Shown here: positions 1-4,346 of the stretch, one piece after another
How the letters are laid out: each line of letters begins with the position of its first letter
How positions within the stretch are numbered: the first letter of the stretch is position 1
Source: a virus
Lineage: Duplodnaviria; Heunggongvirae; Uroviricota; Caudoviricetes
IMG/VR virus record: IMGVR_UViG_2681813320_000022
Direction: 5' to 3' (one strand)
Length of the DNA stretch: 4,346 bases
Program-made: the position numbers and the translations under genes
The notes under the pieces: generated by a model
The model's database searches: none
The model's input: only the letters and a program-made list of their open reading frames with translations
Told to the model about the DNA's origin: nothing

Positions 1-103
1 GAGTTGATGGCTCATGATGTCCCTCTGGGATGCGCTCCGGATGAATATGATGATCTCATATCAGGAACTTGTTCGCACCTTCCTTAGTTAGTGTGGCTTT
101 TAG

Positions 104-355
104 TCAAGTAAGATGACGTCTTGGTCTCGCTGATGCCTGGCGCTCAATCCAGCGATCAATTTCTTCCAGGTTGTAAAAGCATGGACTGTTATCCCATGGC
201 ATACCGTCATGAGCGACATGCTTATATTCCCTTCCTTCCATAAACGATTTTTCCCGGGCCTTTTTTAACGTACCTTTTTTTATTCCTTTCAGCGCAATTA
301 ACTGCTCTTCGGATACCCATTTGCCGGGAGAGACAATCATGATTACTTCGCTCAT
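104..355 (-). CDS. xis: Excisionase-like small DNA-binding protein (Xis / recombination directionality factor family)
   Basis: 83-codon ORF ending in TGA. From the sixth residue (MIVSPGKWVSEEQL...) the protein aligns by eye with lambda Xis: Trp at position 8, basic helix region, and a GREY motif (MEGREYKHVA versus lambda KDGREYLFHE). It lies directly downstream of the exonuclease gene on the same strand and upstream of a probable int start, the canonical exo-xis-int order. The true start may be the internal ATG at 340..338; both candidate starts have weak purine-rich SD. Confidence 0.6.
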   Translation of the reverse strand: MSEVIMIVSPGKWVSEEQLIALKGIKKGTLKKAREKSFMEGREYKHVAHDGMPWDNSPCFYNLEEIDRWIERQASARPRRHLT

Positions 356-384
356 CGATTTCTTTATCTCTTACATCAGACGAG

Positions 385-416
385 CGCCGGTTGCAGAATA
401 CCAGTCACAACCGGCG
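385..416 (-). repeat. GC-rich inverted repeat (9-bp arms CGCCGGTTG / CAACCGGCG, 14-nt spacer) in the exo-xis intergenic region
   Basis: Arms at 385..393 and 408..416 are exact reverse complements. It sits 12 nt downstream of the exo stop and about 30 nt upstream of the xis start. No U-tract follows on the minus-strand transcript, so it is not a canonical intrinsic terminator. Confidence 0.45.
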
Positions 417-427
417 ACAGTTGAACA

Positions 428-2461
428 TTAAGAATCAGCCTGACTCGGGATCAGTTTTTGCCAGATAACTGAAACGTATTTTGCCTGGTAACGGGCGTCA
501 TCAAGTGCATTATGGCGCTCACCTTCGAATGGAATAGCCGTTCTGGCATCGAAGTCTATGGCTTTCCCCAGCTCAACGATTGTGCGTACATCGCGATCGT
601 TGTAGTAACGCCACGGGCAGGGGATCCCCTGCCGTTCGTATGAACGGCGCAAAATCGTGTTGTCGAAGTTGGCTCCATTTCCCCAAACCTGAACAAAAAA
701 TTCACCGGAGTTTTCGTCGATAAATTCTCGCAATTGTAACAGTGCATCATCTAACGGGATTTCATCGGTCATAATGGCAGATTGCGCTTCGCGTGATTGC
801 TTAAGCCACCATTTAATGGTGTCCCGATCAATGACTCCGCCAGCAGTTTCCAGATCGATAGTCTTACTAAATTCCGGTCCCATATCTCCGGTTTGCGGAT
901 CGAAAAATATTGCACCTATTGAGATGATCGGGGCATCAGGATTTTTTCCCATGGTTTCAAGGTCGATCATTAGATGGTCACACGTCCTGCTGGTGGATGT
1001 GATTTCGTGATGACTGTTCACCTTAATTGGGTGATCTGCCGTCTCGCCAGTTTCATTATCGCTATTGTGATGCTGATTGCCGCCAGTGTTCTCCTTGTGT
1101 GGATGTTCAGCGCCTTCCATTTCCTCCGGATCATCTTCCTGAACTTCAACCTGATACTCTTCATCGAATGTTTCTTGGTATGTTGCGTCGCCCATCACCG
1201 CGCCACAATCAGGGCAGTTGCCGCCGCCGGTCTGACCGCAGGCGGTGCAGACTTTTTCCACTTCCTGTTGCGCTACTGGTTCAGGCTGTTTCGTTTCTGG
1301 CTCGTTTTGTAACGCATTTGGACTGTTTTGTTCCGCTTTTTGGTAGTTCCGTTCCGATTCATGCTGGTTCTGGTTCACAGAATCGCGGGTCTGGAGCCCC
1401 TTAACCCATTTCGGATCATTCGGGTCACTAATCCCTTCAACAAATTCACCACGTGATGCAGCAAGCAACTTATCGGCGTCAGGCTGGCTGATATTGGCTG
1501 CCTGCATAATTTTGTTTACTTCGTCAGCGGTAACTTTTATCGGCTCTGGTTGTTCTGAATCTTCAGCGGTATCTACATTTTGCGGTAAGCCCGTGTATGT
1601 GCCATTTTTTCGGGCAAAATATTCTTCTTTTGTGATTTCAGTGGCGCCAGCAGCCAGTGCCTTATCCAGACCAGAGAGTTTGTTTGCGCGACCGTATTTT
1701 TCTCCGTCCTTATCTGCGAAGAGGAAATAGAACGGCCCCTCACGCTCTACAGATGGTTCAGCTTCCGGCGCGGTTTCATTTTTTGGGATATCAGATACCT
1801 CAGTTTCCACTGCATCAGTTTGTGTTTCTGATGACTGGAGAACATCAACAGTGCCCAGGTCTGTTTCTTCATTCTCAAACACGCCCTTTGTCGTCAGGTA
1901 TTCGCAGATATATTTGTTCAGTGCTACGGGATCTTTGTGAATGTCGATCGGACGCTCACGGACAAGGCCAAAAATAGTTTGGCGGTCGTAGCGAAGGGCA
2001 TCAGGCTGTTTGCGCATTGATGCCGAGATACGCTTCCAGTCTTCGCGGTCGTTGTCGATAACTTCTTTTTTTGCCCAGCGATGGATGCTGCCGTCAATGT
2101 TTCCGGCATCCACATCACTAGGCCAGAGAGCGTAGGCCAGTTCGTCATCCAGTGTTTTCCATGTCTGCTTGTATTCGCGATGAATGGCAGCAATGACCGG
2201 GCTGATTTTTCCTGTTGAATTTTCAGTGTACTGTTGATTGGCTCTGGCGCGGGCGAGATCAACAACAGACGTGTATTTTCCGGTTTCCTTGCGTTCACCT
2301 TCGCGACGTTTTTTCCAGATGCGCATCTCTGCCTGAATTTCGGGCCATTTAGCACCAGGAATACATTTATGCTTAACCCACCCAATGGCGTGCAACTTAA
2401 GCTCCGGATACGGGTTATTCCCCTCTGAACAGGCGCGTAAGGACTGGCAAAACGCCCGCAA
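428..2461 (-). CDS. Prophage exonuclease: C-terminal DnaQ-like DEDDh 3'-5' exonuclease domain, central CxxC-x7-CxxC zinc ribbon, acidic/His-rich linker, N-terminal domain of unknown function
   Basis: Uninterrupted 677-codon frame ending in TAA at 430..428. All DEDDh motifs are present in order: Exo I MIDLET (D500/E502, nt 956..964), Exo II VWGNGANFD (D600, nt 662..664), Exo III HNALDD (H650 nt 512..514, D655 nt 497..499). Zinc ribbon CTACGQTGGGNCPDCG at nt 1205..1249. The annotated start at 2461 is TTG; the real start may be internal (TTG at 2395 with GGAG SD, or ATG at 2326), so the 5' end is uncertain. Confidence 0.8.
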   Translation of the reverse strand: MRAFCQSLRACSEGNNPYPELKLHAIGWVKHKCIPGAKWPEIQAEMRIWKKRREGERKETGKYTSVVDLARARANQQYTENSTGKISPVIAAIHREYKQTWKTLDDELAYALWPSDVDAGNIDGSIHRWAKKEVIDNDREDWKRISASMRKQPDALRYDRQTIFGLVRERPIDIHKDPVALNKYICEYLTTKGVFENEETDLGTVDVLQSSETQTDAVETEVSDIPKNETAPEAEPSVEREGPFYFLFADKDGEKYGRANKLSGLDKALAAGATEITKEEYFARKNGTYTGLPQNVDTAEDSEQPEPIKVTADEVNKIMQAANISQPDADKLLAASRGEFVEGISDPNDPKWVKGLQTRDSVNQNQHESERNYQKAEQNSPNALQNEPETKQPEPVAQQEVEKVCTACGQTGGGNCPDCGAVMGDATYQETFDEEYQVEVQEDDPEEMEGAEHPHKENTGGNQHHNSDNETGETADHPIKVNSHHEITSTSRTCDHLMIDLETMGKNPDAPIISIGAIFFDPQTGDMGPEFSKTIDLETAGGVIDRDTIKWWLKQSREAQSAIMTDEIPLDDALLQLREFIDENSGEFFVQVWGNGANFDNTILRRSYERQGIPCPWRYYNDRDVRTIVELGKAIDFDARTAIPFEGERHNALDDARYQAKYVSVIWQKLIPSQADS

Positions 2462-2480
2462 AAAACTCTCGAGGGCAAAG

Positions 2481-2651
2481 GTGAAGAAACCTGCTGTGGT
2501 TGATCCGGACCTTATCTGGTCATCACCTGACGGAGAAATACGTCGCTACGACAGTCGCCTAAACATAATCTGTCGCGAGTGCCGGAAGAGCGAAGTTATG
2601 CAGCGCATACTGGCTTTCTATCAGGGTAATTTTCAGGACGTGGCGCAGTGA
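2481..2651 (+). CDS. Small hypothetical protein (57 aa from GTG; frame is open back to ATG 2385, which would give 88 aa)
   Basis: GTG at 2481 is preceded by GAGGG (2471..2475) with a 5-nt spacer. The TGA stop (2649..2651) overlaps the GTG start of the next ORF (GTGA at 2648..2651), a translational-coupling arrangement. The ATG at 2385 lacks an SD and would overlap the 5' end of the exo frame on the opposite strand. Confidence 0.4.
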   Translation: MKKPAVVDPDLIWSSPDGEIRRYDSRLNIICRECRKSEVMQRILAFYQGNFQDVAQ

Positions 2652-3004
2652 GTGCACCGGCAACCATTCTTGATATGTGCTGTGGCAGCCGCATGTTCTG
2701 GTTCGATAAGTCTGACGAACGGGCGATATTCAGCGATATCAGAAAAGAAGGATACACATTACGCAATGGGAGACGCTTGATTATCAGCCCTGACATTATC
2801 GCAGATTTTCGTGCATTATCATTTGCAGACGCATCTTTTTCGATGGTTGTATTAGACCCTCCGCATCTTGAGAGTGTTGGTGATAACGCCTGGATGGGAA
2901 AGAAATATGGACGGCTGAATAAAGATGCCTGGCGTGATGATTCGCGACAGAGATTTAAAGAAGCCTTTCGGGTGTTGAGGCCGCACGGCGTTCTGATTTT
3001 TTAA
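2648..3004 (+). CDS. SAM-dependent DNA methyltransferase-like protein (motif I then motif IV, gamma-like order), short and probably truncated or interrupted
   Basis: 118-codon ORF with motif I-like ILDMCCGS (nt about 2669..2692), catalytic motif IV DPPH (nt 2855..2866) about 60 aa later, and a RVLRPHGVLIF strand typical of the Rossmann methyltransferase fold. It stops at TAA 3002..3004, after which the same frame is open for 29 more codons to TAA 3092..3094. No C-terminal target-recognition region is present. Confidence 0.55.
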   Translation: MSAPATILDMCCGSRMFWFDKSDERAIFSDIRKEGYTLRNGRRLIISPDIIADFRALSFADASFSMVVLDPPHLESVGDNAWMGKKYGRLNKDAWRDDSRQRFKEAFRVLRPHGVLIF

Positions 3005-3237
3005 TGGAATGAAACGCAAATACCGGTAAGCCAGATTCTGGCACTGACAGACAGAAAACCTGTTATCTGTCAACGAACAGGGAAAAAACGATAAAACCCA
3101 CTGGATTATTTTTATGAAAGAGGCATCCAGTGAGTAGATTCGTAAGGCTACAGATACGTATATCTGAATAATTAAATTCAGTTCTGTAAATAAAATTTAA
3201 TCCTTAACCGGATGGATTTCTGCACCCTCAGAACATC

Positions 3238-3266
3238 AGGAGGCCGCCCGAAAGGGCGGTAGTGAA
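3238..3266 (+). promoter_or_regulatory. Structured ribosome-binding site: AGGAGG, then a 6-bp GC stem with GAAA tetraloop, then 7 nt to the ATG
   Basis: AGGAGG at 3238..3243; stem CCGCCC (3244..3249) / GGGCGG (3254..3259) with GAAA loop (3250..3253); ATG at 3267. Linear SD-to-ATG spacing is 23 nt; with the hairpin folded it is about 7 nt. Confidence 0.45.
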
Positions 3267-3377
3267 ATGCGAAAGTTCAAAATTATTATTGAAACGGGAA
3301 TAGCTGGTGGAGATTTTGAGGATGTATTCGAAGTGGACGATGACGCAACACCTGAGGAAATTCATGACGGAGCATAA
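3267..3377 (+). CDS. Small acidic protein, 36 aa (MRKFKIIIETGIAGGDFEDVFEVDDDATPEEIHDGA)
   Basis: ATG start served by the structured RBS above; TAA at 3375..3377. Eleven of 36 residues are Asp/Glu. The frame stays open for 23 further codons after the TAA, up to TGA 3447..3449. Confidence 0.4.
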   Translation: MRKFKIIIETGIAGGDFEDVFEVDDDATPEEIHDGA

Positions 3378-3441
3378 GAAATTTTCTTTAACTACTGCAA
3401 TTACTCATACCACGAAATAAAAGACGATGAGGAAGAACAAA

Positions 3442-3618
3442 GTGGCTGATTTTTGTTCAGCTAAATATAACATCAGTTTTGAAGAGCGGGATGAACTATT
3501 AATGGACTATGGTGAGTTACGCGGTGGAAGTGCTGCTGATGTCGAATCCTAGCGTGATGACTATGAAGCGGGAAAAACTCCGGTCGAAGCATATTGTGAT
3601 GAGTGGGGCGATGAATGA
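3442..3618 (+). pseudogene. Small acidic ORF with an in-frame TAG at 3550..3552: 36 codons from GTG 3442 (41 from ATG 3427), then 22 open codons to a TGA that overlaps the next start
   Basis: GTG 3442 is preceded by GAGGAAG with a 6-nt spacer. After the TAG the frame has no stop and no internal start for 22 codons and ends in an ATGA overlap with the ATG at 3615. This is either a nonsense-interrupted gene or a 36-41 aa gene followed by a chance open frame. Confidence 0.3.
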
Positions 3619-3902
3619 GCGAGATTAATTATCAGGAAGGGCATGAAACGGCGGGGCAAGCAAAACCAGTGGCATGGCGATATCGCTACGTGAAAAAAGG
3701 CGTTACGGACTTTCAGGGGAAGTAGTGGTCTGGTGACTGGAAATATGTACCGAAAAAAGAGGATTGTAACGACAGGCCGAACTATCAAATTCAGGCCTTA
3801 TTCACTGCCTCACCAGTCCCAGTTACATCAGAAGAACTGGTTAAAGCTGTGCACTTTTATGAACAACTAAAACGCGAAAATCCACCAACATCCGGCAACT
3901 AG
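3615..3902 (+). pseudogene. Hypothetical protein gene with an in-frame amber at 3723..3725 (36 codons, TAG, then 58 open codons to TAG 3900..3902)
   Basis: ATG 3615 overlaps the upstream TGA (ATGA). The 58 codons after the TAG have no in-frame ATG, GTG or TTG. They read as ordinary mixed protein (WSGDWKYVPKKEDCNDRPNYQIQALF...), whereas the alternative frame ORF at 3745..3870 is Lys/Arg-rich as expected for an out-of-frame read. Confidence 0.4.
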
Positions 3903-4145
3903 ATTAATGGATTAACTATGTCGGTTAAACGACCAGCCAACTGAAAAAGCGGAAACCTGATTACAGGTTGCCAGATAAGGCAATGAGCTACCTGGCGCGG
4001 AACGGACTGATAAGTATGGGGAATGTTTTACGATGAACCTTTAGACTAAAGAGTTTGTAACGCTATGTAAGTGATTTTTTCTGGTTTAGATATTTATATG
4101 TCCGGCCAAATTGAGGTGTGTTTAAATGTAATTGCACATTGATTG

Positions 4146-4152
4146 TAGGAGG
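4146..4152 (+). promoter_or_regulatory. Strong Shine-Dalgarno (TAGGAGG) for the ORF starting at 4157
   Basis: TAGGAGG at 4146..4152, 4-nt spacer, ATG at 4157..4159. Confidence 0.5.
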
Positions 4153-4156
4153 AATA

Positions 4157-4252
4157 ATGAAAAACGCATTGCAGTTTTTGTTTGTTGCGTTCTGGTTGTT
4201 CGCATCATGTATGCCCATCATCTTCACAGCGGTAATGACTCCAACTTATTGA
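4157..4252 (+). pseudogene. 5' fragment of a gene encoding a protein with a hydrophobic N-terminus (MKNALQFLFVAFWLFASCMPIIFTA), disrupted by IS1 insertion
   Basis: Strong SD plus ATG. The first 24-25 codons (4157..4230) are host or prophage sequence; from 4231 the frame continues into the IS1 terminal inverted repeat and stops at TGA 4250..4252 inside IS1, so the native 3' portion is displaced. Confidence 0.45.
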
Positions 4253-4346
4253 TAGTGTTTTATGTTCAGATAATGCCCGATGACTTTGTCATGCAGCTCC
4301 ACCGATTTTGAGAACGACAGCGACTTCCGTCCCAGCCGTGCCAGGT
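4231..4346 (-). mobile_element. IS1 insertion sequence, right-end inverted repeat plus 3' part of insB (partial; continues beyond the window)
   Basis: 4231..4253 GGTAATGACTCCAACTTATTGAT is the IS1 terminal inverted repeat. The following 93 nt match, from memory of the well-known IS1 sequence, the reverse complement of the IS1 right end (...CTGCATGACAAAGTCATCGGGCATTATCTGAACATAAAACACTATCAATAAGTTGGAGTCATTACC). Confidence 0.9.
4246..4346 (-). CDS. insB: IS1 transposase InsB, C-terminal end (partial; 5' part lies outside the window)
   Basis: The minus-strand reading ends ...[29 protein letters not shown] with its TAA stop at 4248..4246 inside the terminal inverted repeat, as in canonical IS1. Confidence 0.8.

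Follow-up and report, generated by a model that had tools for sequence, protein, structure and literature searches.

The DNA analyzed here, referred to as the window, is a stretch of 4,346 nucleotides from a virus record assigned to Caudoviricetes. It represents the left end of a lambdoid cryptic prophage at the Qin site of E. coli, with IS ends at both sides, and it contains the following features:

1 to 83, strand not given: end of an IS5-like element (ISKpn26 type), then TTAG; the terminal inverted repeat GGAAGGTGCGAACAAGTTCC lies in reverse complement at 64 to 83
104 to 355, minus strand: intact excisionase gene (DUF1233; Pfam PF06806, E=1.6e-31; RefSeq "excisionase family protein")
428 to 2419, minus strand: exonuclease gene with an Rv2179c-like 3'-5' exonuclease domain at the C-terminus (Pfam PF16473, E=1.9e-67)
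2402 to 2411, strand not given: deletion junction with a 10-bp microhomology, CTCCGG(A/C)TAC; about 4.62 kb was lost between the exonuclease and DUF977 genes
2409 to 2651, plus strand: C-terminal fragment of a DUF977 ("LygF") gene (Pfam PF06163, E=9.9e-15, profile positions 62 to 134 of 134; PHROG 142, E=1.7e-19)
2648 to 3137, plus strand: pseudogene of a small phage DNA methyltransferase (PHROG 954, E=5.8e-72; stop at codon 119, +1 frameshift)
3164 to 3266, plus strand: conserved leader of about 100 nt that accompanies the small-gene trio, with a GNRA-loop hairpin at 3243 to 3259 between AGGAGG and ATG
3267 to 3449, plus strand: DUF7167 (phrog_1997) pseudogene for a 60-aa acidic protein (Pfam PF23768, E=3.1e-13; PHROG 1997, E=2.4e-28)
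3442 to 3618, plus strand: pseudogene with a GTG start for a 58-aa acidic protein that matches the C-terminal part of phrog_519 (PHROG 519, E=6.1e-11)
3615 to 3902, plus strand: phrog_660 pseudogene, not acidic (PHROG 660, E=8.8e-29), with TAG at codon 37 (3723 to 3725) and a divergent, truncated 3' end
4118 to 4230, plus strand: 5' part of an ORF for a 72-aa hydrophobic protein, cut by an IS1 insertion (full ORF in 640R1 at 6553 to 6771; the alignment breaks at window position 4230)
4231 to 4346, minus strand: end of an IS1 element, with the IS1 terminal repeat GGTAATGACTCCAACTTATTGATAGTG from 4231 (RefSeq "IS1-like element IS1A family transposase")

E. coli chromosomes match the window at 99.95% identity, and their annotation shows the region as a series of pseudogenes next to rspB-int-xis. 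Positions 1 to 80 match only genomes where the match falls inside an "IS5-like element ISKpn26 family transposase." The Qin and Rac cryptic prophages share with this region the same chromosomal site, with int beside rspB, and the same downstream genes (ydfW, flxA, relBE, hokD, rem, ydfU, and a Q-type antiterminator). Moreover, in 640R1, PhiR42_1, and Rac-442/2, the replication genes are followed by DUF977/LygF and then by cargo, an order like that of the window. What sets the window allele apart from other Qin/Rac prophages is a 4.6-kb deletion of its own, the two insertions (IS5-like and IS1), and its specific combination of nonsense and frameshift mutations. Positions 2481 to 3902, the subject of this analysis, very probably hold dead accessory genes from a lambdoid prophage of the Qin/Rac type, integrated in E. 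coli beside rspB, and these stem from the stretch that separates the replication genes from the Q antiterminator, the equivalent of the lambda nin region.

The deletion is evidenced by alignment with PhiR42_1, in which window positions 81 to 2411 correspond to 2357 to 4687 and window positions 2402 to 4230 correspond to 9298 to 11126, both at 99.9% identity. As read from PhiR42_1, the lost segment comprises ydfD-like genes, cI, cro, cII, and the O replication gene, and the junction is found in 90 of 5,426 complete E. coli genomes. The exonuclease gene lacks about 160 N-terminal codons (RefSeq label "incomplete; missing N-terminus"); its full-length counterpart lies at 2704 to 5175 in PhiR42_1, and identity to that gene ends at window position 2411. 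Along with the immunity region and the replication gene, the deletion took away the early-left genes and the 5' half of the DUF977 gene, and the rightward genes that survived came to abut the truncated exonuclease gene and xis. A sequence-only reading of the window had regarded a place beside an integration/recombination module as typical of anti-defense cargo. Because the deletion fused the truncated exonuclease gene to the middle of the DUF977 gene, this adjacency is secondary. PhiR42_1 was deposited as a complete phage genome and carries the same lesions as the window genes, which indicates that the lesions predate the deletion and that the genes are dispensable to PhiR42_1. The sharing of lesions with PhiR42_1 is no proof that the window fragments are inert.

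The region of interest begins, at 2481 to 2651, with the tail of the 5'-truncated DUF977 gene, of which 640R1 and PhiR42_1 carry intact 140-aa copies. Lambda ren sits directly after the replication genes, and intact DUF977 relatives occupy a similar place; also, the fragment matches PHROG 142, which is named "Ren-like exclusion protein." Unlike lambda Ren, the window gene keeps the C-terminal 80 residues alone, and the putative Ren likeness in the PHROG name is an annotation. A literature search for "LygF" turned up only lysozyme papers and Salmonella genome notes.

The next gene was correctly recognized from sequence as methyltransferase-like, as evidenced by the match of the ORF at 2648 to 3004 (118 aa) to PHROG 954, "DNA methyltransferase." The same ORF matches the PADLOC profiles MTase_II (E=5.3e-58) and orphan MTase (E=2.5e-41), and its scores with the Pfam methyltransferase models fall below their cutoffs. 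Motif I (LDMCCGS) occupies residues 8 to 14, and motif IV (DPPH) occupies residues 69 to 72. Two lesions disrupt the gene: a TAA at 3002 to 3004, which is codon 119 and encodes lysine in relatives, and a +1 frameshift caused by an extra A within the run at 3083 to 3088. When repaired, the product is 162 aa long and collinear with intact relatives of 157 to 167 aa. Because relatives from other phyla align over at least about 93% of the repaired reading, the lost C-terminal part is a conserved part of this compact family, which keeps 43 to 59% identity across bacterial phyla. RefSeq marks the gene "frameshifted; internal stop" in another strain and elsewhere keeps the 118-aa stub as an intact CDS (WP_001310834.1). 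On sequence alone, the stub could retain some SAM binding.

A PDB sequence search with an intact methyltransferase found no relative at E<=1, and no characterized member of the PHROG 954 family was found. Judging from the DPPH motif, the intact enzyme would most likely place its methyl group on an exocyclic amino group of phage (and host) DNA, and such methylation would protect against restriction. A comparison is offered by PamA, an orphan methyltransferase of the Staphylococcus aureus prophage mPhi11, which renders DNA sensitive to DpnI, read by its authors as GATC (Dam-type) methylation (PMC12435837). PamA and the PHROG 954 family are both very small (about 140 to 165 aa) class I SAM methyltransferases in which motif I precedes a (D/N)PP(Y/H) motif, with no separate target-recognition domain, and both are prophage cargo without a restriction partner. 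The two are likened by features and not by sequence; PamA has NPPY (PMC12435837) and the PHROG 954 family DPPH, and unlike PamA, the window copy is truncated.

The acidic genes that follow do not always come with the methyltransferase. An unrelated zinc-ribbon-like gene occupies its slot in 640R1 and ArgO145, another gene is present in pPE4, and the slot is empty in Rac-442/2. This variation supports the view, already taken from the sequence, that the genes are accessory cargo, here the mosaic cargo of a temperate phage.

The tiny proteins first read downstream of the methyltransferase are the first 36 codons of genes for 60-aa, 58-aa, and at least 119-aa proteins. In the DUF7167 gene, codon 37 has changed from AAA, lysine in relatives, to TAA (3375 to 3377; RefSeq "internal stop"), and the read-through translation scores 50.0 bits versus a Pfam cutoff of 24.4; 640R1 and ArgO145 carry the gene intact. 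Codon 37 of the 58-aa gene is TAG (3550 to 3552), where relatives have Trp or Gln and a near-identical allele (P0295) has Gln; intact copies occur in 640R1 and at three other loci (L006, L007, and L008). The phrog_660 gene is intact in pPE4 (119 aa), and RefSeq marks 3615 to 4036 as "frameshifted; internal stop." Its A-run differs between the window (A6) and 640R1 (A8), which looks like ordinary slippage damage; programmed frameshifting was rejected, as the run is out of frame for a slippery heptamer. Sequencing errors were likewise rejected as the origin of the shared stops, given the same "internal stop" annotations in three independent records and about 500 assemblies at >=99% identity. None of the five ORFs matched NCBIfam.

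Of 5,426 complete E. coli genomes, about 1,529 contain the trio. A match at >=99% identity is seen in about 500 E. coli records, which most likely carry the broken allele; this count derives from the identity match rather than from a genome-by-genome check of the stops.

A scan of positions 2300 to 4240 for promoters and terminators returned 4 promoter-like sites versus 3.4 expected and no convincing promoter, and the pR/replication region that would drive the rightward genes is deleted. Because the five ORFs are all disrupted, this region is gone, and no convincing promoter is left, the block cannot act as a working islet. Judged by their sequences, all rightward ORFs in the window are pseudogenes of a common E. 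coli prophage remnant, and the block would be without function in this genome and drifting. A deletion, IS insertions, and nonsense and frameshift mutations make this a routine case of prophage decay, and RefSeq annotation already treats it as one. From the proposal of an anti-defense islet built of a methyltransferase and tiny acidic ORFs, what survives is a methyltransferase homolog and two acidic conserved proteins; however, none of them is intact, and the third small ORF lacks this acidity, with a pI of 9.2 for the fragment and 5.2 for an intact relative. No known anti-defense gene was found within the window.

The acidity of the first two small ORFs is as originally described. Asp and Glu make up 11 of 36 residues at 3267 to 3377, and in the second ORF, they make up 9 of 41 residues as first read and 17 of 58 when repaired. 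The intact forms carry net charges of -13 to -15 in 60 aa and -12 in 58 aa, with a pI of about 4.05. Because both belong to conserved families and show dN/dS of 0.1 to 0.25 versus intact alleles, they are genuine genes whose acidity is no artifact of the reading frame, and they appear to have been recently lost. DUF7167 and the phrog_519 C-terminal domain, therefore, stand out as two very small, very acidic, well-conserved families. Members at 35 to 60% identity occur in unrelated phages. The families extend from the lambdoid and Stx phages of E. coli to Ackermannviridae, Guernseyvirinae, and Enterococcus Herelleviridae. Among complete E. coli genomes, between about a quarter and a half carry these families, as do several virulent phage groups.

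AF2 models of the two proteins (pLDDT 87.5 and 77.3) predict a beta-hairpin plus helix and a three-helix bundle, respectively. In the predicted DUF7167 fold (strands at 2 to 9 and 16 to 23, helix at 29 to 43), the stop at codon 37 would cut the helix. Foldseek searches with both models found no match in the PDB at E<=0.001, solved DNA mimics included, and a BFVD structure search returned only uncharacterized phage proteins. No anti-restriction or anti-defense family match was obtained in Pfam, PHROGs, NCBIfam, or PADLOC, the models of the last being of defense and not of anti-defense systems. Literature searches on DUF7167 or PhiR42_1 found nothing, and those on anti-defense, lambdoid, small acidic, and DNA mimic found nothing specific.

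T7 Ocr, T7 gp5.9, and ArdA are small, strongly acidic, early-region phage proteins that act as DNA-mimic anti-restriction proteins or nuclease inhibitors, and DNA mimics come in many different folds. The intact acidic proteins resemble these three in size, charge, and early-region origin. Unlike them, the two families have no sequence-family match and predicted folds that match no solved structure, and the window copies are cut at codon 37. The suggestion that such acidic proteins are DNA mimics or defense inhibitors is upheld in respect of charge but finds no support in the family searches. No homology to an unrelated well-characterized family was found either, and the anti-defense idea stays only for the intact homologs.

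We infer that in intact phages, the two acidic proteins are early-expressed accessory proteins serving the lytic cycle. Whether they do so as inhibitors of host nucleases or immune systems, perhaps in a DNA-mimic-like manner comparable to that of Ocr and gp5.9, is doubtful. Such a role for the intact proteins, the window copies being dead, is favored by a net charge of -12 to -15 in 58 to 60 residues and by retention across unrelated virulent and temperate phages. Also, the genes decay in cryptic prophages (the window, PhiR42_1, and Rac-442/2), which fits a role in the lytic cycle over a benefit to the host. A survey of neighbors at about a dozen DUF7167 loci placed relatives next to early-region genes (exonuclease, RecT, Gam, Ral, and Lar), for instance among Ral, Lar-like, cIII, and Kil genes of the pL early operon and also beside GamL and RecT; this company is no more than suggestive of anti-defense, with Ral or Lar-like neighbors at two of these loci and a Gam-like neighbor at one. 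Moreover, phrog_519 members in Kuttervirus have been predicted to be anti-CRISPRs by a machine-learning tool (PMC9409062). Nevertheless, the empty family searches in Pfam, PHROGs, and PADLOC, the lack of a solved structural match, and the uncharacterized BFVD matches all weigh against this role, and acidity and an early-region place are common to small phage proteins with other roles. It is unlikely that intact DUF7167 and/or 58-aa phrog_519-type proteins constitute new families of small acidic inhibitors, for example of RecBCD or restriction enzymes, of which the window copies would be fossils. Should either of these families, or the methyltransferase family, prove to act in counter-defense, it would bear on the host range of phages and on phage therapy.

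The same survey gives a small chance that intact DUF7167 is instead an accessory to the recombination or replication of phage DNA, for example as a partner or regulator of a phage exonuclease. In Klebsiella Guernseyvirinae, the gene overlaps the start of a 454-aa exonuclease gene, after which come genes for a gp2.5-like SSB and a DNA polymerase, and in Enterococcus Kochikohdavirus, it overlaps the end of an exonuclease gene. Elsewhere, its neighbors include RecT, Sipho_Gp157, and an SMC-like ATPase, and in a 166-kb contig, topoisomerase IV and DNA ligase genes are found close by. However, this support comes from about a dozen loci, early regions are rich in such genes anyway, and E. coli lambdoid phages place the gene among unrelated cargo without an adjoining nuclease.

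Within the window itself, the reading of dead accessory genes would be challenged if the shortened products, such as the 118-aa methyltransferase core or the 36-aa acidic peptides, kept activity, which is very improbable. The stub retains motifs I and IV and stands as an intact CDS in RefSeq, and what is most likely the same broken allele is widespread among the closely matching E. coli records. Vertical inheritance of one prophage remnant explains that spread, however, and the methyltransferase has lost about 45 C-terminal residues that are kept from enterobacterial to streptococcal and haloarchaeal virus homologs, while in the DUF7167 stub, half of the single helix is gone, together with a conserved aromatic C-terminal segment. 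Least probable of all is a functional anti-restriction or anti-defense islet beside an integration module: despite the methyltransferase homology, the high acidity of two ORFs, and the occurrence of the same trio a few kilobases from int in the Stx phage ArgO145, every ORF is disrupted, the xis/exonuclease adjacency is an artifact of the deletion, the driving early promoter region is deleted with no promoter signal above background left, and the methyltransferase and acidic genes are independent cassettes.

Finally, the leader preceding the trio is conserved in its own right. It is 90 to 100% identical in five loci (L001, 640R1 [L002], PhiR42_1 [L003], L006, and L007) despite differing upstream genes. 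An Rfam scan of the whole window returned no match at E<=1. The hairpin is present in the centroid fold (-15.5 kcal/mol), and in O157/O111 genomes, the leader occurs alone.

Region 2481-3902 of the window is, with high confidence, decaying prophage cargo without function. In nucleotide comparison, E. coli chromosomes are 99.9-100% identical to window 81-4346. In strain SCPM-O-B-12142, rspA-rspB and then genes for a site-specific integrase and an excisionase directly adjoin the region on its left, while IS1, ydfW, flxA, relBE, hokD, rem, ydfU, and an antiterminator gene lie to its right. The region is the Qin-type lambdoid cryptic prophage site of E. coli. RefSeq labels the equivalent of window 428-4036 in this strain as pseudogenes throughout, with one exception.

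Annotated features of the site (RefSeq labels from SCPM-O-B-12142)
1-83, end of an IS5-like (ISKpn26-type) element
Within 428-4036, 3'-5' exonuclease gene, "missing N-terminus"
Within 428-4036, DUF977 gene, "missing N-terminus"
Within 428-4036, 118-aa "class I SAM-dependent methyltransferase," intact CDS
Within 428-4036, DUF7167 gene, "internal stop"
Within 428-4036, hypothetical gene, "frameshifted; internal stop"
4231-4346, end of IS1

Immediately after the IS5-like end, TTAGTTAG at window 84-91 fits YTAR, the target preference of IS5. The integrase gene, found left of the excisionase gene xis in other strains, is parted from xis, or interrupted, by this element in the window's source genome. 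IS1, in turn, cuts a 72-aa hydrophobic ORF (window 4118-4230) at 4231; the ORF is whole in phage vB_EcoS-640R1 (640R1), where the opposite strand carries the label "hornerin," by appearance a mis-annotation.

All ORFs within 2481-3902 are broken.

Lesions of the rightward ORFs
2409-2651 (covering 2481), DUF977 fragment, last 80 codons of a 140-aa protein (Pfam E=9.9e-15, profile 62-134 of 134; PHROG 142)
3002-3004, methyltransferase, TAA (Lys in relatives)
3083-3088, methyltransferase, one surplus A in the run
3375-3377, DUF7167 gene, codon 37, AAA to TAA
3550-3552, 58-aa gene (GTG start), codon 37, TAG (Trp or Gln in relatives)
3723-3725, phrog_660 gene, codon 37, TAG (Pro in the pPE4 locus)

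When both methyltransferase lesions are repaired, a protein of 162 aa results that is collinear with intact homologues of 157-167 aa. The phrog_660 gene is also divergent and truncated at its 3' end relative to the intact 119-aa copy in pPE4. The sequence-only reading had described several tiny, strongly acidic proteins here. As complete genes they do not hold up, each being cut by a stop at codon 37; the high acidity is borne out for two of them (11 of 36 residues in the first fragment are Asp or Glu), and by computed composition the third, phrog_660, is not acidic.

The shared position of these premature stops, 108 nt past the start codons at 3267, 3442, and 3615, arises from mutations unlike one another (AAA to TAA; TGG or CAG to TAG; CCG to TAG). 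A post hoc estimate from the 24, 23, and 47 codons per gene that are one step from a stop puts its chance at about 1 in 1000, and we treat it as a coincidence. The phrog_660 gene is broken in 640R1 too, with a TAG identical to that of the window; an 85-aa basic "hypothetical protein" annotated there (6105-6362) is an out-of-frame reading of this gene; its frame is shifted by a run of A8, against A6 in the window and in pPE4.

The anti-defense proposal had also drawn on the position of these ORFs next to an integration/recombination module, a context that proves to be the product of a deletion. The two halves of the window align collinearly with phage PhiR42_1 (PV340562.1, from E. coli ECOR13), window 81-2411 with its positions 2357-4687 and window 2402-4230 with 9298-11126, at 3 mismatches in total. 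Relative to PhiR42_1, about 4.62 kb is absent between the halves, with microhomology, CTCCGG(A/C)TAC, at a junction found in 90 of 5,426 complete E. coli genomes. The missing interval holds the exonuclease 5' end, ydfD/ydfC-like genes, cI, cro, cII, an O-type replication gene, and the DUF977/LygF 5' half. This content and the collinearity indicate that the rightward ORFs originate in the counterpart of the lambda nin region, the stretch of cargo that separates the replication genes from Q and that houses the same ORFs in 640R1 and the Rac-442/2 locus. Their closeness to the integration module is secondary, and their early promoter region is gone with the deletion; a consensus scan found promoter-like sites no commoner than background, and an Rfam search gave no match. 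On one point in favor of the sequence-only reading, the same three small genes lie in the early-left region of the Stx phage ArgO145, a few kilobases from its integrase end. Because PhiR42_1 shares the window's lesions, these are older than the deletion.

The PhiR42_1 record was submitted as the complete genome of a phage; at 9544-10806 it has the window's nonsense and frameshift lesions, with 1 mismatch in about 1,820 nt, and an IS insertion follows farther right. Either that phage can do without the broken genes, or the record describes no viable phage but a predicted prophage. At the junction itself, a mechanical 677-aa ORF (428-2461, minus strand) begins at a TTG past the deletion; its first ~14 codons (2420-2461, minus strand) are antisense to the DUF977 fragment and lie outside the exonuclease.

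The methyltransferase assignment was correct, as evidenced by matches to PHROG 954 "DNA methyltransferase" (E=5.8e-72) and to PADLOC Type II (E=5.3e-58) and orphan (E=2.5e-41) models, together with motif I (LDMCCGS) and motif IV (DPPH). The family has 6,694 homologues in the protein collection and occurs in 254 phage records. It is unusually conserved for a phage protein, with 43-59% identity among phages of Enterobacteria, Streptococcus, Listeria, Gordonia, Porphyromonas, Vibrio, and Acinetobacter and 32-35% in haloarchaeal viruses. Its members are only about 160 aa long, with no obvious target-recognition domain; no characterized member was found, and a sequence search gave no solved structure. 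Orphan methyltransferases of phages as a rule serve to reduce restriction of phage DNA, and by best inference from this knowledge the ancestral enzyme would have methylated an exocyclic amino group of the phage DNA, lessening its restriction. The methyltransferase is no fixed partner of the acidic genes: its slot holds an unrelated Cys-rich gene (117-137 aa) in 640R1 and ArgO145 and an Ead/Ea22-like gene in pPE4, and it is empty in Rac-442/2.

Both acidic ORFs are real genes. For the window copies against intact alleles, dN/dS is 0.09-0.14 (DUF7167) and 0.18-0.34 (58-aa gene); both were thus under purifying selection until recently. Intact, the proteins contain 30-33% and 28-29% Asp plus Glu, with net charges of -13 to -15 and -12, respectively. 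DUF7167 scores above the Pfam gathering score, and an exhaustive search gave 103 cluster representatives, mostly of 50-60 aa at 35-50% identity. Its AlphaFold2 model (mean pLDDT 87.5) sets a beta-hairpin (residues 2-9 and 16-23) against a single helix (29-43) and has an acidic tail, and the stop at codon 37 would sever the predicted helix. Foldseek matched this model to no solved structure at E≤0.001, and in BFVD it matched only uncharacterized phage proteins (phAPEC8, Lactococcus phage 949). Tandem DUF7167 units also occur in long proteins, with 8 matched stretches in one of 368 aa (P0198) and 5 in one of 628 aa (P0226). The match of the 58-aa protein to phrog_519 covers the C-terminal part of that family. 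Ackermannviridae that infect Salmonella, Klebsiella, and E. coli encode homologues of the protein at 55-60% identity, and its model is a three-helix bundle (pLDDT 77) with no PDB match by Foldseek.

Since active phages such as ArgO145 retain both acidic proteins, these would have acted in the lytic cycle. Cryptic prophages have lost the genes, as seen in the window, in PhiR42_1, and in Rac-442/2, whose DUF7167 gene has a mutated start codon and a mutated Cys codon. That the intact proteins inhibit host defenses is rather unlikely. Machine learning (PaCRISPR) has predicted phrog_519 proteins of Kuttervirus phages as possible anti-CRISPRs, a prediction only (PMC9409062); a literature search found no other published anti-defense link, and neither protein matched an anti-restriction or defense-related model in Pfam, PHROGs, NCBIfam, or PADLOC. 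That they aid phage recombination or replication is about as unlikely. Gene context, from about a dozen loci in early regions that are rich in such functions anyway, places DUF7167 among early DNA-transaction and host-takeover genes. These loci hold more distant DUF7167 genes. In Klebsiella Guernseyvirinae, the gene overlaps a 454-aa exonuclease gene upstream of genes for a gp2.5-like SSB and DNA polymerase; in Enterococcus Kochikohdavirus, it overlaps the end of an exonuclease gene; and in pL-type early operons, it is flanked by an N, Ral, or P22-type gene on one side and cIII-Kil-RecT on the other, and a Lar-like gene is close by. Other relatives lie near GamL-RecT-Sipho_Gp157, near RecT and an SMC-like ATPase, and next to topoisomerase IV and DNA ligase genes. 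This setting is equally compatible with nuclease inhibition and with an accessory role in recombination.

The three small genes are present at 80% coverage or more in 1,529 of 5,426 complete E. coli genomes. Some 500 records reach 99% identity or more and most likely carry the broken allele; about 1,500 match at 90-95%, and among the matches listed these are intact per RefSeq. The decaying locus itself holds nothing new, its families being already named and its pseudogenes already annotated, and the functional interest of DUF7167, phrog_519, and the PHROG 954 methyltransferases belongs to their intact homologues.

The three genes are accompanied by their own conserved leader of about 100 nt (window 3164-3269), which precedes DUF7167 in five of five related loci despite differing upstream genes. 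It contains, in order, AGGAGG, a GC-rich stem of 7 bp closed by a GAAA loop (hairpin 3243-3259), 7 nt, and ATG. The hairpin may bring a distant Shine-Dalgarno sequence near the start codon, forming a "split" ribosome-binding site; alternatively, it may mark the edge of a mosaic module. The fold z-score of the whole segment is only -1.97. In O157:H7 and O111 genomes, the leader stands without the three genes, upstream of others.
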